Assembly: GCA_963740355.1 (NCBI GenBank)
Contig: CAVUDW010000003.1
Location: forward strand, 2,048,001-2,112,000
Reading direction: 5' to 3'
Origin: an uncultured Gemmatimonadaceae bacterium
GTDB lineage: Bacteria > Gemmatimonadota > Gemmatimonadetes > Gemmatimonadales > Gemmatimonadaceae
Length of the DNA stretch: 64,000 bases
This document shows positions 1 through 13,889 of the stretch, in pieces. Below the pieces are notes generated by a model, which did no database searches, was not told where the DNA came from, and worked only from the letters and a program-made list of their open reading frames with translations. The stretch's first letter is position 1; every line of letters begins with the position of its first letter. The translations under genes were made by a program, and so were the position numbers.

Positions 1-1
1 A

Positions 2-3000
2 ATTCCGGAGCTGCGCACCGCAGCCAACGACGCGCAACGGCTGGCCACCTTGCTGGCCGAGCAACACAGCTACGATGTCACCACGCTGATCGACGCCGAT
101 GCCTCACGGGCACGCCTGACGGAATTGCTGACGAAGGAGCTGCCCGCGCGCGTCGGTGTCGACGACCGCGTGCTCTTCTACTTCGCCGGCCATGGTGTGG
201 CGCGCGACAGTGACGAAGGCCCGAACGGCTACCTGCTTCCAGCGGACGCGCGACGCGGTGACGAGTCCACGTACCTCAACATGCCGCTGGTGCACGACGC
301 GCTGCTTGGACTCAGCTGCCGCCACATGCTGGTCGTGCTCGACTCCTGCTTTTCCGGCGCATTCCGGTGGTCGGGCACACGCGACGCCGAGGAAGTGGTG
401 GAGGTGGTGCATCAGGAGAAGTATGACCGGTTCGTGAAGGACCCCGCCTGGCAGGTGATCACCTCCGCCTCGCAAGACCAAAAGGCCATCGACCAACTCT
501 CGGCAGGCGCACTCGGGAGCCGTGATGGCGATGGCGCACATTCCCCATTCGCGCTCGCCCTGTTCGATGGATTGAGCGGCAAGGGCGATGTCATTCCGCG
601 CGAGGGTGGCGACGGGTTGGTGACGGCCACCGAGCTCTATCTCTATCTCGACGAGACACTGCAGAGCGCGGCACTGGCCGCAGGCAAGACGCAGACGCCA
701 CGACTGTGGCCGCTGAAGAAGCACGACAAGGGCGAGTTCGTCTTCTTCGTTCCAGGCCGCGATCTCTCGCTGCCCCCGGCGCCACCGCTCACCTTCGACA
801 ACAATCCGTGGCGCGGCCTCGCATCGCACGACGCCACCAATGCGACGCTGTTCTTTGGGCGTGATGCAGAAACGGAAGCGCTGCGAAAGAAGGTCGAAGC
901 CAATCCACTGACCGTGGTGCTGGGTGCATCCGGCACAGGAAAGTCTTCGCTGGTGAAGGCCGGCGTCGTCCCTCGCCTCACGGCCGGCGGCTGGCTGGTG
1001 TTGCCGATTGTGCGCCCGGGGTCAACACCGCTGATCGCGCTTGCACAGGCACTGTCGGTTGACGGTCAGGGCTCGGCCGGCGCCGCCACTCCGGAGAGCG
1101 TCACTGCCGTGATGCAGCGACTCCTCGATGCACAGGGCGACAAGAAAGTCGTGCTGGTGATCGATCAGTTCGAGGAACTGATCACCCTCGTGCCCTCCGG
1201 CGCCGAGCGCGATCGCACGCTGGCGCTGCTCGCCAGTCTCGCCGATGCGCACGCCGATCGCTTGCGCATCGTCGTCACGATCCGCACCGACTTCGAGCCC
1301 AATTTCGACCGCTCCGCCTTCGGCGATCGGTGGCGAGAGGGCCGCTACAACGTGCCACCGATGTCGCGGCAGAATCTCCGCGACGTGATCGAGAAGCCGG
1401 CCGCCGCGCGAGTGTTGTACTTCGACCCATCCAGCCTCGTGGACACGCTGCTGGACGAGGTGGTGACGACGCCGGGCGCGTTGCCACTGCTCTCCTTTGC
1501 GTTGAGCGAGATGTACATCGCCTACGTAAAGCGCCAGAGCAGCGATCGTGCCATCACACGCGCCGACTACGATGGCCTTGGTGGAGTCGCTGGCGCACTT
1601 CGCTCGCGCGCCGAATCCGAGTACGCCGCGCTCGACGCGGCACATCGCGCCACGCTGCGTCGCGTCATGCTGCGCCTGGTGACCGGTGAAGGTGGTGGCC
1701 TCGCACGGCGGCGAGTGATGGATGCCGAACTCGATTTTGCCGACATGGACGAACATGCCCGCGCCGCCAACGTGGTGCAGCGCCTCACCGCCGCACGACT
1801 GCTCGTCGAAGGGAAGGAACCGGATGGCGAGGCATTCGTCGAACCGGCGCACGATGCACTGGTCCGTGGCTGGGGACGCCTGATGGAATGGGTGCGCGAA
1901 GAGAACGAAGCGAAATTCGCGCTCTCGCAGCAGCAACGGCTCACGCGATCGGCCACCGAATGGGAGCGAGCCGACGCCACCTCGAAATCCGGCCTGTTGT
2001 GGAGCGACTCGTCGCGCAGCGCCCAGCTGGCGCCGCTGGTTCGGAAGAAGGCCCCGTGGCTCAATCGTCGAGAGCTGGCTTTCGCGCAGCGCAGCATCCG
2101 GGGGCGGCGGATCACGATGGCAACCGTCGCCGGCGCGCTGCTCACCATCACCGCGGCCGGAATCGTCGCCATCGTGGGCGGCCTGCGAGCCAGTGCACGA
2201 GCCGAGCAGGTTCGCATCGGGGCAATCGTCCGCACGGCCACCTCGATGGTGACCGAGGATCCGATGATCGCCGGCCTGCTGCTCGGCAGCATCGACAGCG
2301 CCGCCGTCGAGAAGGCTGATGCCGCCACCCGTCTCGCGATGCTCGGCGCCGCACTCGAGCTGCGTCGCGGGCCTCGCGTCCTGGCCACCTTCAACGCCGA
2401 CGATGAAGTCGTCGCGGCGCGGATCAGCCCCGATGGCCGATCGGTGGCGACCGCCGTGATCGACAATGAAGTGCGGATCTGGCGCGCCGATGGCACCGGG
2501 TCACCGCTGGTGCTGCGGCAGCCGAACATGCCGGTGACGGCGATCGAGTTTTCGCCGAGCAGTGATCGTCTGGCCGTCGGCGATGCAAACGGCGCGATCC
2601 GCATCTGGCCACGAACCGGCCCCGGCGCTCCAGTCACGCTGCCGGGCGATGCGACGCCCGTCTTGCGGATGCAGTTCAGCCGAGACGGCAGACGCCTGCT
2701 GGTGACGTACGATGTCGGTGCGGCGAAGATCTGGACGACCGACGGCTCGGGCTCGCCAACCGAGATCCAGTCGAAGAAGATCAAGTACCTCGTCGCCGGC
2801 GTGTCGCCTGAGACCGGCAAGGACATGCTCACCCCAGCGTTCGTGGGCGTGGACGAGGCGCTGTTCGCCGATGGCGATCGACAGGTCGTGACGATCATGC
2901 GCGACAGCAGCGTGCAATTCTGGCCCAGCGTCGGTGTGGCCGAGCCGACGCGCACGGTACGACTGCCGCGACGCGAGGAACCGACGCGGATCGCGGTCAG

Positions 3001-4684
3001 CCCGGACGGCAAACGCGTCGCCGTCGGCGGTCGGAACGCGCAACTCTTCGTGCTCGATCTGGGCGTCAAGTCGCGCAGCCTGCGGCTCTCCGGCGCCACC
3101 GGCGACATCGCGGCGCTCGGCTGGAGCCCCGACGGCGCGATGTTGGTGAGTACTGCCACCGACACCGGCATGCTGGTGTGGAATACGACCTCGGGCGAAC
3201 GCATCCGCCGATTCCGGCACAACGGCGAGGCGATGCAATCGGCCGATTTCAGCCCGGACGGTCGCTCGATCATCACGACCTCGCCGTATTCGTTTCAGGC
3301 TACCATCTGGTCGCTCGACAGCGCGGTCGTCGCGCTCCCAGGCCAGACGAACGAGCTGGTGGCGGCAGACTTCGCCCCTGATTCGCGTCGCGTCCTCACG
3401 GCCGCGAAAGACGGCAGCGTGCGGCTCTGGTCGCTACCAGACCCACCCATCTACTCCGAACGCGGTGGCATCGAAAGCGAACATCCCGAAGGAGGCAACA
3501 TCGCGGCGGTGGCATTCTCGCCGGACGAAAGAACGATCGCGATGAGTACGCTGGACGGTCTTATGTATCAAAAGCGGCTTGATAGTGTCTCGATGAAGCG
3601 TATGATCGACTCTGCGCCAGGGACGCTGCGGACGCTGGCATTTTCGCCTGATGGACGCCGCCTGCGCGGTCTCCTGTACGACGGAACGCGGCGACTCTGG
3701 ACGCTCGGCACAATCCCGTCCCGTGCGGACGTCCCGACGAGCTCGACCGCATTTGCGATCACCACGGAGTTCGCCGCCGACGGTCGGCACGCACTCTCCA
3801 TCACCGATCAGGGCAGCGCGCTGGTGTGGGATGTCGACACGAAATCACCGCCGATGACGCTGCAGCTTCTCCCCGCCGATTCCATCTGCGCCGGTCAGGA
3901 CGGCGACGACGATTGCGCCGATCCGTTGGATAGCTGCGCCGCGCTGTCGCGCGATGGTCAGTTCGCGGCGGCATGCCTGCGCGCGGGTCCGGCCGCGATC
4001 TACCGCGTGCCGACGACGACGCCATTCCGCACGATCACGACACCCCGATCGAGCCGGTCCACAGCCGTGGCATTCAATTCCGACGCCAGCCGGATCGCGG
4101 TCGGCTACGGCAACGGCAGCATTCGGCTCTTCACGGTCGCCGGCGCAGATACCGGCCGCCTGATCGCAGGACATCGGCAGGCGGTAAAGCTGCTCGACTT
4201 CTCCCCCGATGGTCAGCGACTGCTCTCGGCCGCCAAGGACGGCACGGTCCGCGTCTGGGACACCGCGACGGGCACCTCGCTCGTCACCATCCGACCCAAA
4301 GGCCTGGTGATTCAGGTCGCGAAGTTCACGCGCGACGGGACACGCATCGTCACGCTCGGCGCCGGCGAAGTGGATGGTCGGCTGTGGAACGCTGATGGGT
4401 CGGGCGGCTTCGTCTCGATGCCGGCCGGGCGAGGCGAAGTCCGCGAGCTGTATCCCAGCGCCAGTGGCAGATGGCTGCTGGCCACCAGTGCCGAGCAGAC
4501 CGCCCAGCTCTATCCACTCGATCCGAATGATGCGATCGCCGCATTTCGAAATGCCCGCACCTGCATGACAGTGGCCGAACGCCAGCGGTACCTCACCGAG
4601 TCCGCGCCAGACGCGACAACCCGATATCGAGCGTGCGAGACAAGTCGACGTGGTACTGATACGACGACAACGCCTGCGCGATGA
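2..4684 (+). CDS. Caspase-like (peptidase C14) + nSTAND1-type P-loop NTPase + transmembrane helix + WD40 repeat protein; 5' end lies outside the window
   Basis: Frame is open from base 2 (IPELRTAANDAQRLATLL, typical C14 N-terminal helix). Catalytic FYFAGHG and LDSCFSG; NPWRGL pre-ATPase motif; Walker A GASGTGKSS; Walker B VLVIDQFEE; PGALPLLSFAL and HDALVRGWGRL winged-helix motifs; hydrophobic helix near 2111-2185; many FSPDG...VRxW WD40 blades. Confidence 0.93.
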   Translation: MPELRTAANDAQRLATLLAEQHSYDVTTLIDADASRARLTELLTKELPARVGVDDRVLFYFAGHGVARDSDEGPNGYLLPADARRGDESTYLNMPLVHDALLGLSCRHMLVVLDSCFSGAFRWSGTRDAEEVVEVVHQEKYDRFVKDPAWQVITSASQDQKAIDQLSAGALGSRDGDGAHSPFALALFDGLSGKGDVIPREGGDGLVTATELYLYLDETLQSAALAAGKTQTPRLWPLKKHDKGEFVFFVPGRDLSLPPAPPLTFDNNPWRGLASHDATNATLFFGRDAETEALRKKVEANPLTVVLGASGTGKSSLVKAGVVPRLTAGGWLVLPIVRPGSTPLIALAQALSVDGQGSAGAATPESVTAVMQRLLDAQGDKKVVLVIDQFEELITLVPSGAERDRTLALLASLADAHADRLRIVVTIRTDFEPNFDRSAFGDRWREGRYNVPPMSRQNLRDVIEKPAAARVLYFDPSSLVDTLLDEVVTTPGALPLLSFALSEMYIAYVKRQSSDRAITRADYDGLGGVAGALRSRAESEYAALDAAHRATLRRVMLRLVTGEGGGLARRRVMDAELDFADMDEHARAANVVQRLTAARLLVEGKEPDGEAFVEPAHDALVRGWGRLMEWVREENEAKFALSQQQRLTRSATEWERADATSKSGLLWSDSSRSAQLAPLVRKKAPWLNRRELAFAQRSIRGRRITMATVAGALLTITAAGIVAIVGGLRASARAEQVRIGAIVRTATSMVTEDPMIAGLLLGSIDSAAVEKADAATRLAMLGAALELRRGPRVLATFNADDEVVAARISPDGRSVATAVIDNEVRIWRADGTGSPLVLRQPNMPVTAIEFSPSSDRLAVGDANGAIRIWPRTGPGAPVTLPGDATPVLRMQFSRDGRRLLVTYDVGAAKIWTTDGSGSPTEIQSKKIKYLVAGVSPETGKDMLTPAFVGVDEALFADGDRQVVTIMRDSSVQFWPSVGVAEPTRTVRLPRREEPTRIAVSPDGKRVAVGGRNAQLFVLDLGVKSRSLRLSGATGDIAALGWSPDGAMLVSTATDTGMLVWNTTSGERIRRFRHNGEAMQSADFSPDGRSIITTSPYSFQATIWSLDSAVVALPGQTNELVAADFAPDSRRVLTAAKDGSVRLWSLPDPPIYSERGGIESEHPEGGNIAAVAFSPDERTIAMSTLDGLMYQKRLDSVSMKRMIDSAPGTLRTLAFSPDGRRLRGLLYDGTRRLWTLGTIPSRADVPTSSTAFAITTEFAADGRHALSITDQGSALVWDVDTKSPPMTLQLLPADSICAGQDGDDDCADPLDSCAALSRDGQFAAACLRAGPAAIYRVPTTTPFRTITTPRSSRSTAVAFNSDASRIAVGYGNGSIRLFTVAGADTGRLIAGHRQAVKLLDFSPDGQRLLSAAKDGTVRVWDTATGTSLVTIRPKGLVIQVAKFTRDGTRIVTLGAGEVDGRLWNADGSGGFVSMPAGRGEVRELYPSASGRWLLATSAEQTAQLYPLDPNDAIAAFRNARTCMTVAERQRYLTESAPDATTRYRACETSRRGTDTTTTPAR

Positions 4685-4747
4685 GCCGGTCGAAGCAAAT
4701 GCCTGCTGCTCTGGTTCGCGCTACATCCGCGCCGTATCCTTGAGCCT

Positions 4748-7669
4748 GTGACCACGCCCAACCTCCCTGGTGATCCGAAGCCGGTGAACGGGCCGCCTCT
4801 CTCCGGCGTGATCGCCAACCGCTACCGGATCGAACGGCAGATCGGCGAGGGCGGGATGGCGACGGTCTACCTCGCCCACGACCTCACACGCGGGGTATCG
4901 GTCGCACTGAAGGCGCCCAAGGCCGAGTTGGTGATGCAGCTCGGCGCGGCACGCTTTGCGCGCGAAATCCAGATCTCGACCAAGCTGCAGCACCCGCACA
5001 TCGTCCCCGTGCTGGACGCTGGTTTCGCCTCGGAGTCGGTGCCGTTCTACGTCATGCCGTTCATCGACGGCGAGACGCTCGAGCAGAAGCTGGAGCGAAC
5101 CGGCGCCCTCCCCATCGACGAAGCGATCACCATCGCCACCGAAGTGCTGGACGGGCTGATCTACGCGCACAAGCAAGGCTTCGTGCACCGCGACGTAAAG
5201 CCATCGAATGTTCTGATCGCAAACGGGCATGCGATGTTGGCTGACTTCGGCATCGCGCGCGCCGTCGAGACGACCGACAACCGCAAGCTGACCGAGTCGG
5301 GCTTTGCGCTCGGCACCGCCGAGTACATGAGTCCCGAGCAGGCGGCCGGCGATGCGCAGCTCGACGGTCGCAGCGATCAGTACAGCCTCGGTTGCGTGCT
5401 CTATGAAATGCTGGTCGGCGGACCACCGTTCAGCGCGCCGACGGCACGCGCCGTGATGGCTCGGCACTTCGTGGATCCCGTGCCGAGCATTCGCACGGTG
5501 CGCGACACCGTGCCGGAGAAGCTCGAGCAGGCGGTGATGACTGCCCTGTCGAAGATTCCGGTCGATCGATTCGCGGACGCCGCAGCCTTCAAGGCAGCGC
5601 TGAAGGACCCGACGCTGCGCGACGCGACGGCGGCGAGACCGACCACCGCGGCACTGGCAAGGCGCAAGCGAACACGCGTCGTGGGTGGCGTACTCGCGGC
5701 GGTAGCCGTGATCGCGGCACTCACTCTCTGGCGTATGGGTGGAAGTGCCAGTGCGGTGCTCGATCCGAATCGGGTCATGGTCTACCCGTTCGTGACGCCT
5801 GCCGGCTACAGCGGTGCACAAGCGGTGGGCGAAGACGTTGCCACCATCATCGGCAACGCACTCGATGCGGCCGAGCCATTGCGTTGGGTGGACGGGTGGT
5901 CGATGCTCGCCGCGAAGGATCGCGAGAATATCCGGCTGCTCGAAGCGGATGACGCGCGCCGGCTGGCACGTGAGAAACGCTGCGCCACGTTCATCACCGG
6001 GAGGCTCGTGCCGAGCGGTGATTCCGTGAAGGTGTACCTCACGCTGAATGATGTCAGCGGTGACTCGGTACTGGCGCAGGGCGAAGCCACCGGCAGCGCA
6101 AAGGACCCATGGCGCCAGGGCCTTCGCGCCATGAGCGGCATCCTGCCGAAGCTGATCCCGGGCGGCACCAGAGACGTTTCGGCGGACTGGAAGGATCGCA
6201 GCCCTGGTGCGGTCGCCAGCTTCCTCCTTGGCGAAGCAGCATTCCGTCGCGTGCAGATGACGGATGCGCTGACGCGCTTCCGCAAGGCAATCGAGCTCGA
6301 TTCGACCTTTGCGCTGGCGGCGTTGCGTGGCGCACAGGCGGCATCCTGGAATCACCGGAGCGCTGAAGCTGCGTCGATGGTGTCTGTTGCACTCACGCAG
6401 CCGTTACCACCACGCTATCACCAGCTTGCGGTCGGAATCGCGGCGTATCTCGCCGGGCACGCCGATTCTGCGATCGTTCACCTGCATGCAGCGACAGCGG
6501 CCGATCCGGATATGACCGTCGCCTGGATGCAGCTGGGTGAGGTGTACACACACCTGCTGCCGTTGGCTGGCAATACCGACTCACTGGCAGACCTCGCATT
6601 TTCGCGGGCACGGATGCTCGACACCAATGCGGCGAGCGCACTGCTGCATCCGATCGAGATACGCCTTCGTCGCGCCGACACGGTCGCGGCGCAGGCGCTT
6701 CTGGCACGCTTCCGCGCCGCAAACCCTGATGCGCCCCTTCTTGCGCCGCTCACGATCGCCGAGACCTGCGTGACCAAGGGCGCGACGGCGGTAGACTGGA
6801 ACGGCGAGGCCGCGCGGCAACCGCTCTACCTTCTCGCAGCATCGAAGACACTCGCCGGTGGTGGCGCGCAGCTCGAGTGCGCGGTCGCAGGCTTCCGCGC
6901 GATTCTGGCCATCGATACGGCGGCGACGGATGAAGCCGATGCCCGGCGATTCGCCGCCATGCTCGGCCTGCAGGCAATTCACCTCGCCCGTGGTCAGCCG
7001 GCGTTGGCATCTGCCACCATCGATGCATTCGTCGCCCGCTGGGGTGCAGGGTCATCGCTGTTCCTGCTCGATGGAGCATTCGAGCCCGCGCTGCTCGCTC
7101 GGGCTAGCGCGGTCGCCGCATCGGATGCCGCGACGTACGGTGTGAACTACACCAACTTGCCGTACGCGCGGCGACTCTGGGAGTTGGGGATACTCGAGAT
7201 GCGGACGGGCAGCGTGGACGTGGCCGCAGCGGCCGCCGCAGAACTTCGCCGCCGCGGTGCCGACCCCGACTCCAGCTATGCGCTCGCACGCGCAATGTCG
7301 CTCGAGGCGTTCGTCCAGCTCGCGCGCAGCACCACGAGAGCCGATTCAGCGAATGCCGAGCAGCGTTTCGTCGCGCTGCTCGAGCGCGGCCCGGACGGGG
7401 AGTCCTATCAGTGGGATGAGGCCGCACCGATGGCGGCAGAACGACTCACGCTGGCACGGTTGCTCCAGGCCCGAGGTGCGTACGAGCAGGCAATCGGTGT
7501 CGCCGAAGTGTTCGACTCGCGTTGGCCGCTGGTCTACGTGCAATTCCTGCCAGCCAGTCTCGAACTGCGGGCGGCGGCAGCGAAGTCGCTTGGCAATTCC
7601 GCGCGCGAGTCGCATTATCTAACTCGCCTCGCTGCACTGCGAAGTCAGGTGAAGGCTACCGGAGGCTGA
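4748..7669 (+). CDS. Membrane-anchored Hanks-type Ser/Thr protein kinase with TPR-like helical C-terminal region
   Basis: GEGGMATVY, VALK, HRDVKPSN, DFG and GTAEYMSPEQ motifs; TM segment VVGGVLAAVAVIAALTLW after RRKRTR; TPR-like FRKAIELDSTFALA. GTG start approximate. Confidence 0.93.
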   Translation: MTTPNLPGDPKPVNGPPLSGVIANRYRIERQIGEGGMATVYLAHDLTRGVSVALKAPKAELVMQLGAARFAREIQISTKLQHPHIVPVLDAGFASESVPFYVMPFIDGETLEQKLERTGALPIDEAITIATEVLDGLIYAHKQGFVHRDVKPSNVLIANGHAMLADFGIARAVETTDNRKLTESGFALGTAEYMSPEQAAGDAQLDGRSDQYSLGCVLYEMLVGGPPFSAPTARAVMARHFVDPVPSIRTVRDTVPEKLEQAVMTALSKIPVDRFADAAAFKAALKDPTLRDATAARPTTAALARRKRTRVVGGVLAAVAVIAALTLWRMGGSASAVLDPNRVMVYPFVTPAGYSGAQAVGEDVATIIGNALDAAEPLRWVDGWSMLAAKDRENIRLLEADDARRLAREKRCATFITGRLVPSGDSVKVYLTLNDVSGDSVLAQGEATGSAKDPWRQGLRAMSGILPKLIPGGTRDVSADWKDRSPGAVASFLLGEAAFRRVQMTDALTRFRKAIELDSTFALAALRGAQAASWNHRSAEAASMVSVALTQPLPPRYHQLAVGIAAYLAGHADSAIVHLHAATAADPDMTVAWMQLGEVYTHLLPLAGNTDSLADLAFSRARMLDTNAASALLHPIEIRLRRADTVAAQALLARFRAANPDAPLLAPLTIAETCVTKGATAVDWNGEAARQPLYLLAASKTLAGGGAQLECAVAGFRAILAIDTAATDEADARRFAAMLGLQAIHLARGQPALASATIDAFVARWGAGSSLFLLDGAFEPALLARASAVAASDAATYGVNYTNLPYARRLWELGILEMRTGSVDVAAAAAAELRRRGADPDSSYALARAMSLEAFVQLARSTTRADSANAEQRFVALLERGPDGESYQWDEAAPMAAERLTLARLLQARGAYEQAIGVAEVFDSRWPLVYVQFLPASLELRAAAAKSLGNSARESHYLTRLAALRSQVKATGG

Positions 7670-7697
7670 GCCTCCATTCCCGTCCGAGGGTAGTTCG

Positions 7698-8027
7698 ATG
7701 ACCAAAGGTCGCGAAGGTGATGTCGTTGCGCCGACATCGAGTAAGGGTCGTGATGGCGACATCGTGGCGCCGGTCTCAGGCAAGGGACGCGAGGGAGACA
7801 TCGTCGCGCCGGTCTCAGGCAAGGGTCGCGAGGGAGACATCGTCGCGCCGGTGTCAGGCAAGGGTCGCGAAGGAGACATTGTCGCACCGGTCTCGGGCAA
7901 GGGTCGCGAAGGGGACATCGTCGCGCCGGTCTCAGGCAAGGGACGCGAAGGCGACATCGTCGCACCGGTCTCGGGCAAGGGTCGCTCCGGTGGGGAACCG
8001 GTGAAGAAGGACCCGCGCGACCGATAG
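7698..8027 (+). CDS. 109-aa tandem-repeat peptide, 7 x 13-aa KGR(E/D)GD(I/V)VAP(V/T)S(G/S) plus an eighth KGR
   Basis: ATG preceded by GAGGG; 28 bp after the kinase stop and 31 bp before the next caspase start, same strand. Units 3-7 are identical in protein and differ in DNA only at synonymous third positions. Confidence 0.8.
   Translation: MTKGREGDVVAPTSSKGRDGDIVAPVSGKGREGDIVAPVSGKGREGDIVAPVSGKGREGDIVAPVSGKGREGDIVAPVSGKGREGDIVAPVSGKGRSGGEPVKKDPRDR
7704..7985 (+). repeat. 39-bp coding tandem repeat, 7 full units plus a partial unit
   Basis: Units start at 7704, 7743, 7782, 7821, 7860, 7899 and 7938, partial at 7977; consensus AAGGGTCGCGARGGNGACATCGTCGCRCCGGTCTCRGGC. Confidence 0.97.
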
Positions 8028-8058
8028 GTCCCCCACGATTTCACAACACAGCACAACC

Positions 8059-9636
8059 ATGACGATGCCCGAGTCTTCTGTCGACGGCGTCCGCCGCGCC
8101 GTGGTCATTGGCGTCGACAACTACACCAAGAAGCCGCTCGACGGGTGCGTTGCCGACGCGACGATGATGGCCGAGGTACTGCAGCAGCGGTTCGCGTTCG
8201 ACAAGGCGAATATCTCGCTCCTGCTGAACGATGCCGCGCGCCGCGATGCCGTGCTTGCGGAGCTCGACCAGCTCGTCGATCTCACCACGGCGAACGATGT
8301 CGCGTTCATCTTTTACGCCGGCCATGGTTCACAGTCGGTGAATAGCGACAACACCGAATCGAGTGGCTACGACAGCACCTTCAACGTCTGCGACAATCCG
8401 CGCGAGGACATTCTCGACGACGAGATCGCGGCGCGCCTCGCTGCCCTCGGCGAGAAGTCGCCCTGGACGGTGATGATCGTTGACGCCTGCAATTCAGGCA
8501 CGCTCACCCGCAGCGCAGACGCCGGGCCGAAAGAACGCTGGACGCCGCCGGTCGACCGCACAGCCCTGCCGGCCGCTGCGCAGCAGGCGCTCACGACGCG
8601 AAGTCCCGTCGCTGCAACACCGGAGTCGTACGTTCTCCTGACGGCCTGCCGTGATGGCGAGATCGCGCAGGAGACGGTCATCCCCGGCGACCAGACCATC
8701 CACCACGGGGCGTTCACGTTTGCACTCGTTCACGAGTTGCAGCGCGCAATCGGTGGCGACACCTGGCGCGACGTATTCGATCGGGTGTCACGGGCGGTCA
8801 GCACAGTGCACAAGGAGCAGCACCCGCAGATCGATGGCAATCTCGATCGCGAAATCTTCGGCCTCCGGCAACTGCCACCGATGCCGTTCGTGGCCATCAC
8901 TGATCGCGCCAGTACCTCCGCCGTGCTCGCCGCCGGCTCGCTGCACGGTGTCAGCATCGGCAGCGTGTACACGATCTACGCCGATGGGACCAAGGATGTC
9001 ACCGGCGCAGCGTCGCTTGGCACGGTCGAAGTGACACTGGTGAAGGGCACCACGTCTCGTGCACGCGTCGTCTCTGAGACGGCACCTGGTGCGATCGTGA
9101 TCGGCTCACGCGCTGTACAATCACAACGCCGAACAGTCGACGATGCGCTTGCGCTCACCAATACCGATCCGAAGAGCCGCATGCAGGGTGCCGTCACCCT
9201 CGAGATCCTTCGTCGTGACGTCGACGGTGCGTGGGCCGTCGCCATGGACGACGTGTCGTTCGGCATGCCCGTCTTCGACTCCGGCGATCGCATCGCATTT
9301 CGCATGACGAACACACTCGATGAGCCAGTGTTCGTGAACCTCTTTGACTTCGACCCGACGGGTACGGTGTCAGTCAAGACGAAAGGCTGGGCGAATCAGC
9401 TGAAGGCAAAGGGGGTGTTCGAGATCGGTACGGACACCCGCAAGATCTCGATGCGCTGGGATGCGGATGACGCGGTGGAGTCGTTCAAGCTGTTTGCATC
9501 CGTCGCGCAGGTGGACCTCTCCTGGCTCCTGCAGCTCGACCAGCCGGGGCGCGGCACTGAGGAGGTGTCATCGCTTGCGGTCGACGACTGGTGCTCGCAC
9601 GTGAAGTCAATCCGCATCCGTCGGAAACTCGCATGA
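8059..9636 (+). CDS. Caspase-like protease (peptidase C14, meta/orthocaspase type) with C-terminal Ig-like (DUF4384-like) domain
   Basis: RRAVVIGVDNY..LDGCVADA, FYAGHGS (His), VDACNSG (Cys), LLTACRDGEIAQE, HGAFTFAL, QHPQIDG; C-terminal GDRIAFRMTN...VFVNLFDFDPTG...ESFKLFAS. Confidence 0.92.
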   Translation: MTMPESSVDGVRRAVVIGVDNYTKKPLDGCVADATMMAEVLQQRFAFDKANISLLLNDAARRDAVLAELDQLVDLTTANDVAFIFYAGHGSQSVNSDNTESSGYDSTFNVCDNPREDILDDEIAARLAALGEKSPWTVMIVDACNSGTLTRSADAGPKERWTPPVDRTALPAAAQQALTTRSPVAATPESYVLLTACRDGEIAQETVIPGDQTIHHGAFTFALVHELQRAIGGDTWRDVFDRVSRAVSTVHKEQHPQIDGNLDREIFGLRQLPPMPFVAITDRASTSAVLAAGSLHGVSIGSVYTIYADGTKDVTGAASLGTVEVTLVKGTTSRARVVSETAPGAIVIGSRAVQSQRRTVDDALALTNTDPKSRMQGAVTLEILRRDVDGAWAVAMDDVSFGMPVFDSGDRIAFRMTNTLDEPVFVNLFDFDPTGTVSVKTKGWANQLKAKGVFEIGTDTRKISMRWDADDAVESFKLFASVAQVDLSWLLQLDQPGRGTEEVSSLAVDDWCSHVKSIRIRRKLA

Positions 9637-11555
9637 CACCCCGGGTCTACGCCCTCCTGGTGGGCATCAACGACTACGTCGCCGTGCCCAAGCTGCATGG
9701 CTGCGTCGCGGACATCTCGGCCGTGGAAGCACTGCTGTCCTCACGCATCCCGAAGGACGCGCTCGACATGCAGGTCTTGCATGACGACAATGCGACCCGC
9801 GCCGGCATCATCGACGGATTCCGGACTCACCTGCGAAAGGCCGCGGCGGACGACATCGCGGTGTTCTACTTCTGTGGCCACGGATCGCAGGAGAATTGCC
9901 CGCCGGAGTGGCTCCCGCTCGAGCCAACGAGCAAGAACCAGACGATCGTGCCGGTGGACGCCCGAACCGGCGACGTGTTCGACATCGCGGACAAGGAGTT
10001 GAGTGCGCTGATCCACGAAGTGGCAGCAGGTGGTGCACAGGTGGTGACGATCTTCGACTCGTGTCACTCCGGTGGCGTGACACGTGATATCGACGACACG
10101 ACGCTCGGGCATGAGAGCCCCGTGCGCATGACTGCCGCCAGCACCGGGCGGACGCGAACACTCGCCGACTATCTCGATCTCGCACGCACCCTGTACGACC
10201 CGACGCGCATCGCCGCCGAGGGGCCACCCGATCCCAGTCATATCGCGATCTCGGCCTGTCAGTACGACCAGACGGCGAAGGAATTCCCGATACAGCCACC
10301 GCGCCGCGGTGCGTTCACGCAGGCGTTCGAAGAGGCAGCGAGTTCGCTCGGCCCGTCTGCGAGCTACATCGATCTCGTCACAGCGGTCCGCACGAGAGTG
10401 CGTGATCGCGCCACGGACCAGATGCCGAGCCTCTCAGTGATTGGCAAGGCCGACGGTGCCTCGATCTTCATGGCAGGGCATGTCGGGCGGCGGGACCTCA
10501 CCTTGGACATCGATTCGACCGGAGCATGGTGGTTGTCGTCGGGATCGATCACCGGTATTCCGCCAACTGAAAGCGGCAACGTCACCTCCGTCGCCATTTT
10601 CCCGCGAGGCGCCTTCGACTCGCCTGCCGCGACACCTGCGCCGATTGCGACAGCGACCATCGATCTCGTCACCGCCGATCGTGCACGTTTGAAGTTGGGC
10701 AGCAATTCAGCACCGCTTGATGCCGCACAGCAGTACCTCGGTACAATTTCTGGTATGGGTACGCCGCCCCTCAATGTCGTCGTTACTGGGGCGGTGGCCG
10801 AGCAGACTGCGGCAGTCACGACGGTCCTGGCCGGGCGCAGTGGGCTGTTCGCCGTGAATGCGACGGCGACATCGAGCTTGCCGACGGTCACCGTTCGTGT
10901 CGATGCGACAACAGCCACGATCCACGACGCCGATGGCGCGCCATTGCCGAACCAGCAGTTCACGCTCGAAGCCGCGGGGCTGCAGTCGCTCGCCAACGCC
11001 TGTGATCATCTCGCGAAGTGGTACGGCACGCGCGATCGCACGCCGATCGCATCGACGCTCAACGGCAGGGTGACGATCGACGTCGTGCCCGTCGCGCCCG
11101 GTGAGACGACGGTTCCTCCTGATCGCGCTGCTGTCGCTCCCACCAATGGCACGGTCGTGCTGCGCTACACGGGTGACCAGCCGCCGGTGGTGCAGTTCCG
11201 GCTCAAGAACACGTCGGGAGTGCGGTTGTATGTCGCACTCCTCGACCTCACCGATTCGTATGGATGCTCGGTGAAGTTCAGCGATTGGATTCCCGCCGGC
11301 GGCACGGCGCTCGCCGGTGGCGGCAAGACGTACAAGATGAGCTTTGCCGCGTGGCGGGATCCGTCGTTCACGGTCACGACCGACATCATGAAGCTCTTCG
11401 CCGCCACCAGTGATTTCAGCACGACGCAGCTCGTGCTCGAATCGCTGTTGAAGCCGAAGGTGGTGGGCGGGACGCGGGAAGCGGTGGAGGAGGAAGAGGA
11501 GCCGGACACGTCCTTTTGGGGGACGACGGCGGTTGTCGTGGAGACGCGGCGGTAG
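9633..11555 (+). CDS. Caspase-like protease (peptidase C14) with C-terminal Ig-like (DUF4384-like) domain
   Basis: ATG overlaps the upstream stop (ATGA at 9633-9636); YALLVGINDY..LHGCVAD, FYFCGHGS, FDSCHSGG, ISACQYDQTAKE, RGAFTQA; C-terminal FRLKNTS..LYVALLDL...DIMKLFAAT. Confidence 0.92.
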   Translation: MTPRVYALLVGINDYVAVPKLHGCVADISAVEALLSSRIPKDALDMQVLHDDNATRAGIIDGFRTHLRKAAADDIAVFYFCGHGSQENCPPEWLPLEPTSKNQTIVPVDARTGDVFDIADKELSALIHEVAAGGAQVVTIFDSCHSGGVTRDIDDTTLGHESPVRMTAASTGRTRTLADYLDLARTLYDPTRIAAEGPPDPSHIAISACQYDQTAKEFPIQPPRRGAFTQAFEEAASSLGPSASYIDLVTAVRTRVRDRATDQMPSLSVIGKADGASIFMAGHVGRRDLTLDIDSTGAWWLSSGSITGIPPTESGNVTSVAIFPRGAFDSPAATPAPIATATIDLVTADRARLKLGSNSAPLDAAQQYLGTISGMGTPPLNVVVTGAVAEQTAAVTTVLAGRSGLFAVNATATSSLPTVTVRVDATTATIHDADGAPLPNQQFTLEAAGLQSLANACDHLAKWYGTRDRTPIASTLNGRVTIDVVPVAPGETTVPPDRAAVAPTNGTVVLRYTGDQPPVVQFRLKNTSGVRLYVALLDLTDSYGCSVKFSDWIPAGGTALAGGGKTYKMSFAAWRDPSFTVTTDIMKLFAATSDFSTTQLVLESLLKPKVVGGTREAVEEEEEPDTSFWGTTAVVVETRR

Positions 11556-11568
11556 GGCGGGCGCAGAA

Positions 11569-13587
11569 TCAGCGTGGTCTTTCGACTAACTGTGGTTGCG
11601 CGCGACCTGCTGCCTGCAGACCGTTGCCGAGTGCGCCGAAGACGTTGGAGCCCCAGCACCAGGCCTTGCCGCTCGCGCTGAAGGCGCAGGCGTGGCGAAA
11701 GCCGACGCTGATCGACGTAAAGTTACCTGCTGGTTGATTTGGGATCAGCTTCGGTGCGAACTCGACTCCGAGCGCGTCGCTTCCGCTCTGCCGCCATTGG
11801 TTGCTGCCCCAGCAGTACGCCGCACCCGAGGATTCCAGTGCGCATGTGTGTGAGGAGACGGCGTCTCCGCCTGCTACCACGTACGCGAGTGGCGACGAGG
11901 AAGCAACAGTAGTTGGCGTCGTGACGAATCCGACGTTCGAGTTGATGCCAAGCTGGCCACTTGAATTGTCGCCCCAGCACTGCGCCACACCGTTCGCTCG
12001 AAGTCCACATGTATGCTTATAGCCTGCACTGACCGACACATACGGGCCGCCCAAAACTGTGTCCGTCAATGCGTCAGTGCTCTGCAACGTACCGAGTCCG
12101 AGTTGCCCACGGTCATTGGCGCCCCAACAGAAAGTCCGTCCCGCTACCGTGACGGCACATGTGTGAAATCCGCCGGCGGCGATCGATCGAAATGTTGTAT
12201 CCGGATAGATCGGAATGGGAGTCGTCGAGTTCACACGGCGCGCGTCGCCGAGCTGCCCTGTCGAGTCACGCCCCCAACAGAACGCCTTGCCTGCCGCCGT
12301 CAACGCGCACGCATGGTTGGCACCCGCAGAGATCGAGTCGAAACGTTCGCTGCGCACGGTCACGAGGCGCGGCGTAGTGCCGCCACCCGGCGACGAACCG
12401 TTGCCGATCTGGCCGTACGTGTCCGATCCCCAGCAATAGGTCGAACGATCGGTCGTGATTCCGCACGCGAAGTTGCCGCCGAGCGAAATTGTCTTGAAAG
12501 AGAGTGTATTCGTCGAGTCGTGCTTCGGTGAAAGTGAGCAGGCGAAGCGAACGGGTGAGGGGGCTTCGAAGGAATCGAAACAGAGGCTATCCCCAGCAGT
12601 CGCAAGCTGCCCGAGATCTCCCTTGCCCCAGCAATAGAGACGTCCGGTGACCGTCGTTCCGCAGGAGAAGTCGCCCCCTGCTCGGACCGTGACCAGGTCG
12701 CGTTCGAGCACCGTGAGCGTGATCGAGGCGGTCCGGAATCCAGAGGCCGCCGAGATCGTAACAGCGCCCGCACTCCGGGTAATCACGCGTCCCGATGTAT
12801 CGACAGTCGCAACCGTGTTGTCCGAGGTCGTCCAGACGAACTTCCGCCCCGCGACTGCACGATCGTCGTACCCGCGTGCCGTCGCCTTGACGATCACCGT
12901 ATCCGAGGCGAGGACCTGCGTCACGGGCGTGGTCAAGGCGATGTCCTTGATCACCGGAAGGACGGTGACAGTCCCGGAGCCGGCCGCGGAAATTGCCGAC
13001 GCGGTCAGGCCCGCAACGCCTGGCGCCACCGCGTGGACAGTGCCGGTCGAATCGACGGTCGCCACGGTTGGGGCGAGCGAGGTCCAGACGAAGCGTGTCC
13101 CGGCAACTGCCTTCGCACTGTCGTCGAAAGCCGTCGCCACGAATCGAAGGGAGTCCGCACGGACGATCGGGTCATCCACGATGATCGTGTCGCTCCGCGG
13201 CGTGACGGTGACCCGTTGTGCGGCGCGAGCGATCACAATCGTGGCGTATCCCTTCACGCGCGCACTGGCCGCAATGCGCACCGTGCCGAGATTGACCGGC
13301 CGGACCACACCCGCCTCGTTGACCACCGCGACCGAGGAGTCCTCGGTGAGCCAGATCACCCGCCCGCCGGTGATCGTCTGGAAGTCGGTGCCGACGATGC
13401 GTGCTGACAGCTGCCGCTGGTCGGTCGGGCGCAATGTGTCCGCCACGAAGATCGTATCCACTTCCGGCGTCACGTCGACGCGCAGAACGCTGGAGCCGGT
13501 CAGGCCTGGATCAATCGGGCCAGTATCCGCATCACAACCTGCAAGTGTCAGCGCGAGGCCGAGGGAGAGGAGAGCGCCGCGAGTCAT
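11569..13587 (-). CDS. Lipoprotein with Ig-like (Big_2) domains and an RCC1-repeat beta-propeller
   Basis: Lipobox LAGC after a hydrophobic leader (MTRGALLSLGLALTLAGC); WTSxxxxVATVDxxG Ig repeats; repeated ISAGxxHxCxxxxxGxxxCWGxNxxGQLG. Confidence 0.9.
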   Translation of the reverse strand: MTRGALLSLGLALTLAGCDADTGPIDPGLTGSSVLRVDVTPEVDTIFVADTLRPTDQRQLSARIVGTDFQTITGGRVIWLTEDSSVAVVNEAGVVRPVNLGTVRIAASARVKGYATIVIARAAQRVTVTPRSDTIIVDDPIVRADSLRFVATAFDDSAKAVAGTRFVWTSLAPTVATVDSTGTVHAVAPGVAGLTASAISAAGSGTVTVLPVIKDIALTTPVTQVLASDTVIVKATARGYDDRAVAGRKFVWTTSDNTVATVDTSGRVITRSAGAVTISAASGFRTASITLTVLERDLVTVRAGGDFSCGTTVTGRLYCWGKGDLGQLATAGDSLCFDSFEAPSPVRFACSLSPKHDSTNTLSFKTISLGGNFACGITTDRSTYCWGSDTYGQIGNGSSPGGGTTPRLVTVRSERFDSISAGANHACALTAAGKAFCWGRDSTGQLGDARRVNSTTPIPIYPDTTFRSIAAGGFHTCAVTVAGRTFCWGANDRGQLGLGTLQSTDALTDTVLGGPYVSVSAGYKHTCGLRANGVAQCWGDNSSGQLGINSNVGFVTTPTTVASSSPLAYVVAGGDAVSSHTCALESSGAAYCWGSNQWRQSGSDALGVEFAPKLIPNQPAGNFTSISVGFRHACAFSASGKAWCWGSNVFGALGNGLQAAGRAQPQLVERPR

Positions 13588-13889
13588 CGATTTTCCGAGG
13601 GGAGAGTCCGTTCCGATCAGCTGAGCTGAGCCGACGCAAAGGTTCGATACGAGTCGAAGCCTTTGCACGGATCAGACCGGAACGCCGATCGGCGCGGCAC
13701 GTCCACCCCCTCCTCTACAGCGACGCTGCTTTGAGCGCCACACTGTCCGCGGCTCGTCTCGGATTGTGGCAGCTTCGCTACGAAAGTGCAGCGCACTCAA
13801 AGGATGGCTGCATCCCTACTAGGAATATTCTGCTAATATATCAAAACATCGTGCGTGACATATCACGCCGGAATCCTCTGCGAGGCCCG

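Follow-up and report, generated by a model that had tools for sequence, protein, structure and literature searches.

Conserved arginine loops in three metacaspase-type proteases and an arginine-spaced repeat gene that travels with a membrane kinase gene in Gemmatimonadota

A five-gene operon was analyzed at the start of a 64,000-nucleotide stretch of DNA (hereafter the window; positions 2,048,001 to 2,112,000 of contig CAVUDW010000003.1, assembly GCA_963740355.1) from an uncultured Gemmatimonadaceae bacterium. The operon is encoded on the + strand, with the window beginning inside it, and consists of caspase A, a Ser/Thr kinase, a repeat peptide, caspase B and caspase C. Its relatives that carry names were found mainly in Gemmatimonadota, with the same gene order in several genomes. 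A first-pass annotation of the window had noted an arginine motif, [T/G]-R-[D/E/S/G] with acidic residues, after the catalytic Cys of each caspase, near the C termini of caspases B and C and in the repeat peptide, and had proposed that a single recognition code links auto-activation, trans-activation, release of the C-terminal tail and peptide processing. All five caspase motifs and the repeat peptide were found where that annotation had placed them, and the features are as follows.

1..4684, + strand: caspase A, a C14 protease followed by an nSTAND1 NTPase, a transmembrane (TM) helix (about residues 730-748) and WD40 propellers, 1583 residues (Pfam nSTAND1, WD40 and PF00656); in the genome its start lies 68 bases upstream of the window
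347..382, + strand: catalytic Cys139 (347-349) to Arg150 (380-382) of caspase A, the candidate activation site
4748..7669, + strand: Ser/Thr kinase with a TM helix and a 643-residue TPR-containing ectodomain (5738-7666; Pfam Pkinase and TPR)
7698..8027, + strand: repeat peptide gene, 109 residues (coding pattern, and position kept in relatives)
8059..9636, + strand: caspase B, a soluble protein of 525 residues with C14, beta-barrel and DUF4384-like Ig domains (Pfam and predicted structure)
8509..8511, + strand: Arg151 of caspase B (Cys+7), kept in 19/19 homologs
9550..9552, + strand: Arg498 of caspase B, in disordered loop 496-505 before the last strand, kept in 19/19 homologs (predicted local distance difference test, pLDDT, <50)
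9633..11555, + strand: caspase C, a soluble full-length paralog of caspase B, 640 residues
10083..10085, + strand: Arg151 of caspase C (Cys+7), in disordered loop 146-159, kept in 71/71 homologs (pLDDT <50)
11475..11477, + strand: Arg615 of caspase C, in disordered loop 610-626 before the last strand (629-639), kept in 71/71 homologs (pLDDT <50)

Caspase A is likely the sensor and initiator of this set, and the kinase with its TPR ectodomain is a candidate peptide receptor; basic residues precede the kinase TM helix, and the ectodomain is predicted to lie outside the cell. By domain, fold and catalytic dyad, caspases A, B and C appear to be intact metacaspase-type proteases of family C14B. Their Peptidase_C14 matches scored 97, 87 and 60 bits (Pfam cut-off 21.4), and the predicted folds of caspases B and C matched GSU0716 and AtMC9 (the latter at Z 26 and a root mean square deviation of 2.8 A over 242 residues). 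At the sequence level the His-Cys dyads were intact (A, H87/C139; B, H89/C144; C, H83/C144), and two acidic residues of the S1 type, an Asp two positions before the Cys and another near the N terminus, were invariant in the alignments; the dyad together with the Asp just before the Cys, present in all three, is the pattern of Arg/Lys-specific metacaspases. Profile alignment of caspases B and C (probability 100 over 506 columns) paired both of their arginine sites. The C-terminal Ig domain is widespread, with 1,808 representatives matching its profile, and every full-length protein with this Ig domain also had a C14 domain (79/79). Matches to more specific models were limited: the EACC1-associated caspase model NF047832 scored 74, 52 and 37 bits, below its cut-off of 140; PADLOC returned generic caspase and kinase models only; and sequence and fold searches of the PDB gave no solved PCaspase-like full-length relative. 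Neither a SAVED-CHAT activator nor a sigma factor appeared in the Pfam scan of the five genes, which for caspase A covered the best 25 of 50 families, C14, nSTAND1 and WD40 filling its length; the CHAT score on its C14 domain was weak and below cut-off.

As worded, the motif [TG]R[DESG] is degenerate and weak alone: it occurred at 0.0028 per residue in 2,435 long open reading frames (ORFs) of this genome, and the three caspases together held 15 instances where 7.6 were expected, five of which the first-pass annotation had chosen. It is position and conservation that make the pattern more than chance. R150 of caspase A, at Cys+11, was kept in 120/120 homologs, with Thr at P2 in 98/120 and variation from P1' on, while R151 of caspases B and C, at Cys+7, was kept in 19/19 and 71/71 homologs after removal of partial or frameshifted rows (3/22 and 5/76, respectively). 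At these sites conservation dropped sharply just past the Arg. Across 275 non-A C14 domains, a set recruited partly with a pattern spanning Cys to P2, Arg was found at Cys+7 in 260 and Lys in 7; in a set recruited solely by the C-terminal Ig domain, Arg occupied this position in 73/73. The expectation that these arginines would be conserved within otherwise variable loops was thereby borne out, as it was for the tail arginines described below (B R498, 19/19; C R615, 71/71). The loops are equivalent as far as the aligned sites of caspases B and C are concerned; the arginine of caspase A lies four residues farther from its Cys.

Since caspases B and C are full-length paralogs and the post-Cys arginine is family-wide, the likeness among the caspase motifs is inheritance; with both sites aligned, the four B and C sites amount to two homologous pairs. 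Taken among the caspases alone, the motif is ordinary family homology rather than independent convergence on one code. The position of the post-Cys arginine nonetheless points to function despite inheritance, as it falls in the loop that joins the p20-like half to the p10-like half, where caspases are cut to mature. MaOC1 is reportedly cut at R219, and PCaspase is said to be cut at R153 (Cys146+7). We consider it very probable that the post-Cys arginine is the activation cut. Other near-invariant arginines of the same loop (A R145, 118/120 at 365-367; B R160, 19/19 at 8536-8538; C R165, 71/71 at 10125-10127) may be second cut sites or structural.

The second arginine of caspases B and C, R498 and R615, precedes the last strand of the DUF4384-like Ig domain and ranked first in conservation over its neighbors, among 35 arginines in B and 36 in C. 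In alignment-free tests, [TSVA]R[DGSAEN] was found in the tail loop of 54/67 representatives compared with 22.8 for shuffled loops and 14.4 for other windows (36/225 domains of this first set being unparsed), and in 62/88 new representatives compared with 39.9 for shuffled loops (maximum 53 of 1000; 52/140 unparsed, and the recruiting profile itself contains Arg). Longer tail loops often carried two such motifs. The P2 and P1' preferences were alike at the post-Cys and tail sites (Thr; D/G/A/E/S). The earlier proposal that cleavage releases a C-terminal tail is doubtful. A nick is likelier than tail release since the residues after the tail arginine form the final beta-strand of the Ig-like domain, behind which orthologs often carry a fused DUF7379 hydrolase; a regulatory nick in the tail loop or an S1 plug fits better than release. 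That the tail arginine is cut at all seems somewhat more probable than that it is left intact. Many caspase B orthologs are about 500 residues longer (loci L007, L008, L014, L015, L018 and L034), the window protein being a short form; the longer orthologs P0139, P0145 and P0088 are fused to a DUF7379/PGAP1-like alpha/beta hydrolase, and further T/E-R-[D/S/G] motifs were found in the linker of the hydrolase-fused proteins. The Pfam scan found no hydrolase effector among the five window genes.

The repeat peptide gene encodes eight G-R sites (Arg at 7710-7985) spaced 13 residues apart, such that cutting after each would yield seven 13-mers, of which five are identical. When these five units are compared, every one of the 7 variable columns falls at a third codon position, and a GAGG site lies upstream; the ORF is a real coding sequence. 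A DNA-level repeat or array was considered and rejected, the variation being synonymous. No hydrophobic signal peptide was seen. Relatives carry units of 8 to about 15 residues that are very divergent in sequence; what they share is one Arg followed mostly by E/D/G, with Pro at +6 in about 31/38 weighted ORFs, a count from a logo that includes two spurious ORFs (L221 and L226), omits L016 and required Pro within +3 to +9 for selection. The P2 residue is Gly in the window and G/S/T/D/E across relatives, with Thr in only about 4/38 locus-weighted peptides. In five loci (L010, L015, L034, L121 and L123), the peptide genes have long Lys/Ala-rich, histone-like tails or heads. An ESM Atlas search of the repeat peptide returned nothing usable (best 0.81), and one of the kinase ectodomain returned generic TPR clusters only. 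Cleavage of the repeat peptide at its arginines is likely.

The comparison of the peptide with the caspases bears on how strict a recognition code could be. The strict form, in which one sequence-specific [T/G]-R-[D/E/S/G] plus acidic recognition would drive auto-activation, trans-activation, tail release and peptide processing, gains from the enrichment of that very motif in tail loops (32/67 compared with 9.2 for shuffled loops; 37/88 compared with 16.8) and from the matching preferences of the post-Cys and tail sites. It is improbable in light of the peptides, in which Thr at P2 is rare and the acidic run absent, of the tail sites, in which the commonest P1' is Ala (C, 20/71; B, 12/19), outside the proposed set, and of related enzymes that read P1 only, the tail itself being a domain strand. 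Of the single code suggested earlier, the invariant P1 Arg in variable, low-confidence loops is retained as common ground, while the caspase motif is family homology and the P2 residue differs, with Thr in the caspases and mostly Gly in the peptide; with the acidic run also missing from the peptide, the single code fits poorly. The code would be loose, since characterized bacterial C14 proteases need little beyond a P1 Arg in an accessible loop. The original observation is confirmed and its interpretation partly supported.

Similarly improbable is that the arginines are not cut but bind, either as an auto-inhibitory plug of the S1 pocket in cis or trans or as a structural contact, with the peptide acting as an intact scaffold or kinase substrate. 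For this, Lys225 of AtMC4 is described as sitting in the acidic pocket before the cut (10.1101/2020.03.09.983940), and many repeat units contain Ser/Thr; set against it are the disorder of both loops in the models and the 8/27 consensus units that lack Ser/Thr. The latter count also led us to disfavor the peptide as a general kinase substrate. Both this and the strict code are less likely than a protease cascade or a decoy, which are discussed below.

The linkage of the repeat gene to the kinase gene was missed in the first-pass annotation. An Arg-spaced, Pro-containing repeat gene travels with the membrane kinase-TPR gene: such an ORF followed the kinase at every locus found by way of caspase B or C (34/34) and at 3/4 further close kinase loci, for a total of 37/38, all from one clade and with several near-duplicate locus pairs included. 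As a control, the 39 kinase-domain hits of this genome were examined, and a downstream repeat-like ORF was found only here (8 units) and at one other (3 units). On a quick tree of the ectodomain, built without bootstrap, the repeat loci formed one group (two changes compared with 15.5 for shuffled labels). The sister kinase group had Arg repeats at 0/19 loci and, at the same place, a small protein with a Pro-rich tail at 15/19. A caspase B profile match was found in 7/9 genomes with the closest kinases compared with 2/20 of the next. The juxtamembrane linker of the kinase had no conserved Arg site by eye.

The small proteins of the sister group, 62 to about 155 residues as called, appear helical; by eye, those of L225 and L228 look like lipoproteins and that of L227 has a TM segment. 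Lying downstream of the kinase gene in mostly caspase-free genomes, loci L210-L229 represent an undescribed kinase/small-protein pair. At L140 and L141, an ORF of 7-residue Arg repeats precedes a B-like caspase, and the kinase ectodomain of the window was unmatched in the fetched flank.

Taken together, the five genes may form an Arg-specific protease cascade whose peptide output acts on the kinase, a reading to which we give an even chance. The part that can be read from sequence comprises the three intact metacaspase-type proteases, the invariant, exposed arginines and the conserved order of kinase, repeat peptide and caspase B. In this cascade, a signal at the WD40 propellers of caspase A would cluster its nSTAND1 domain, upon which caspase A would cut itself after R150 and then activate caspases B and C by cutting each after R151. 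The active enzymes would (i) nick the Ig-domain loop at R498 and R615 as a second regulatory step; and (ii) cut the repeat protein after each Arg to produce many copies of one short, Pro-containing peptide. Recognition may follow a loose code of P1 Arg in a flexible loop with a small or acidic P1', Thr at P2 being preferred only in the caspases. Once the cell lyses or leaks, the peptide could serve as ligand of the kinase TPR ectodomain; this last step is possible, at somewhat less than an even chance.

Co-variation was examined for the link between peptide and ectodomain. By Mantel analysis of 22 loci, peptide distance correlated with ectodomain distance at rho 0.72, compared with 0.60 for caspase B and 0.48 for the kinase domain (19 of the 22 loci with this domain in hand), and the partial values were 0.51 for the ectodomain and 0.16 for caspase B, a result that is suggestive only since the loci are kin rather than independent and the test overstates. 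The lead of the ectodomain over caspase B persisted in 6/7 shorter ectodomain segments. A complex prediction that paired three peptide units with the ectodomain, from a 21-row alignment (score 0.01, mark 0.32), counts neither for nor against this link.

The main rival is that the repeat protein acts inside the cell as a multivalent decoy or inhibitor, its eight Arg sites soaking up stray caspase activity and setting a threshold, as PCi does for PCaspase, with the kinase a separate output. The peptide and the caspases share the cytoplasm, most loci have the repeat gene immediately ahead of caspase B, copy number ranges from 2 to 13 with many units being Gly/Pro filler around a single Arg, and PCi is described as both cleaved and inhibitory (10.1101/2023.06.23.546230). 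A decoy, however, needs neither an identical P'-side sequence in every copy nor closer tracking of the ectodomain than of caspase B; moreover, at L016, L203, L207 and L208 the peptide gene remains next to the kinase gene although caspase B is not adjacent, and a Pro-rich small protein persists in the sister clade in the absence of caspases. We regard the decoy as unlikely.

Several points weigh against the cascade with peptide signaling. Other arginines are equally invariant, including R56, R111, R165, R350 and R523 of caspase C and R12, R13, R115, R160, R237, R283, R351 and R411 of caspase B, and by analogy with Lys225 of AtMC4 a conserved Arg can be structural or an S1-pocket plug. Any Arg is common in windows such as the tail loop (controls, 58.9/67 and 83.4/88), and the unparsable tail domains mentioned above, like the kinship of the loci in the Mantel analysis, temper the respective results; for segment 300-450 of the ectodomain, neither partial value leads (0.32 and 0.33). 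Genome G153 has the peptide and the kinase without a PF00656 match; the STAND gene of that genome, however, is truncated by the end of an 8.4-kb contig, on the side expected to hold the caspase domain. With the peptide lacking a signal peptide and the ectodomain predicted to face outward, membrane damage would be needed to bring the two together, and to act on a neighboring cell a 13-mer would have to pass through that cell's outer membrane. The cleavage and binding steps of the cascade are all inferred.

Elsewhere in the genome, a second caspase locus (L003:6031-17038; G000:C3, about 1,190,000-1,201,000) encodes two apparently exported caspases, the first of which appears frameshifted near L003:9880 with its Ig-like part in another frame; several T/S/V-R-G motifs are found in the neighbors, which we take to be M48, Sel1, S8 and CHASE2-cyclase genes. 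The entire operon was also found at 57-89% identity (L004) inside a metagenome-assembled genome titled Acidimicrobiia, reflecting misbinning or transfer. Within the window, a convergent gene with a lipoprotein-like look follows at 11569-13668 (- strand), presumably encoding Ig-like and RCC1-like repeats.

For a large bacterial family of C14-Ig proteases, the conserved arginines name precise activation sites that can be tested, and the repeat peptide offers a natural substrate ready for use; what is both new and open to experiment is the Arg-repeat polyprotein linked to the kinase. Were the peptide to signal through that kinase, bacteria would have a danger peptide released by a caspase, and an orphan class of Gemmatimonadota membrane kinases would have a ligand; were it a decoy, it would represent a new kind of caspase brake. 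Among the titles and abstracts surveyed, none concerned a kinase - repeat peptide - caspase module or an Ig-loop Arg; subscription papers and bioRxiv supplements, outside this scope, may map such sites.

In relation to known systems, the closest parallels are with proteases that cut after basic residues. Metacaspases and orthocaspases are described as activated when a linker is cleaved on the C-terminal side of a basic residue (PMC5756287; 10.1101/2020.03.09.983940); for MaOC1, the accounts describe a p20 domain cut from the chain (PMC5756287) and autoprocessing with a preference for basic clusters (PMC5756287, PMC7935541). The window caspases share the fold, the His-Cys dyad and the Asp before the Cys with AtMC4, AtMC9, Yca1, TbMCA2, MaOC1 and GSU0716. 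They differ in that the AtMC4 site lies far into a long linker (Cys139, Lys225), whereas the candidate Arg here is at Cys+7 or +11, and in carrying, in addition, barrel and Ig domains that bring another Arg loop, as well as a STAND-WD40 fusion; caspase-STAND-WD40 proteins have been noted before (PMC13581612). In the PCaspase cascade of Haliangium ochraceum (SAVED-CHAT, PCaspase, PCi, PCk and PCc-sigma), PCaspase is described as activated in trans (10.1101/2023.06.23.546230). Both systems would have an initiator protease that activates a C14 executioner in trans, as proposed here, and in each the operon also encodes a Ser/Thr kinase together with a small protein that is cleaved or, here, predicted to be. 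The initiator here is instead a caspase-nSTAND1-TM-WD40 protein, and none of the five genes encodes a SAVED protein or a sigma factor; in place of a CI-2-like fold, the small protein consists of unstructured repeats spaced by Arg; and the kinase carries both a TM helix and a TPR ectodomain. LcCaspase, encoded with an alpha/beta-hydrolase, is described as cutting R|G at conserved motifs (10.1101/2025.11.14.688446). Such protease-effector defense modules (LcCaspase, EACC1 and Pepco) resemble the window in their STAND-linked caspase and conserved Arg motifs, many caspase B orthologs being hydrolase-fused; caspase B of the window, however, lacks the hydrolase, and the published description consulted mentions no repeat peptide or receptor kinase. 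PsCaspase of type IV Thoeris is described as requiring only P1 Arg, with small residues favored around the site (10.1101/2024.10.24.620036); it would share Arg specificity with the proteases proposed here, yet is activated by a TIR-made nucleotide, and no TIR gene is among the five. The plant system offers the parallel for peptide output: in the accounts consulted, AtMC4, with its Lys225 plug, releases Pep1 at Arg69 for sensing by PEPR1 (10.1101/2020.03.09.983940), a receptor with a leucine-rich repeat ectodomain (PMC7663391). The fullest reading of the operon, which we offer tentatively and think rather doubtful as a whole, is a bacterial danger-peptide circuit parallel to PROPEP-metacaspase-PEPR, in which a STAND-triggered metacaspase cascade would release many copies of a lineage-specific peptide from a tandem polyprotein for a co-evolving TPR receptor kinase on neighboring cells, the circuit having arisen by rewiring an older pair of kinase and Pro-rich small protein with Arg spacers. 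The plant comparison is a working analogy with no sequence relationship expected, the system here being bacterial and operon-encoded with a tandem polyprotein and a TPR ectodomain. The likeness to PROPEP1, metacaspase 4 and PEPR1 lies in a cytoplasmic precursor that would be cut after Arg by a metacaspase and in a membrane receptor kinase proposed to do the sensing, and the matching architecture, a membrane kinase with a repeat ectodomain of predicted outward topology and a paired small precursor, is present in the operon.

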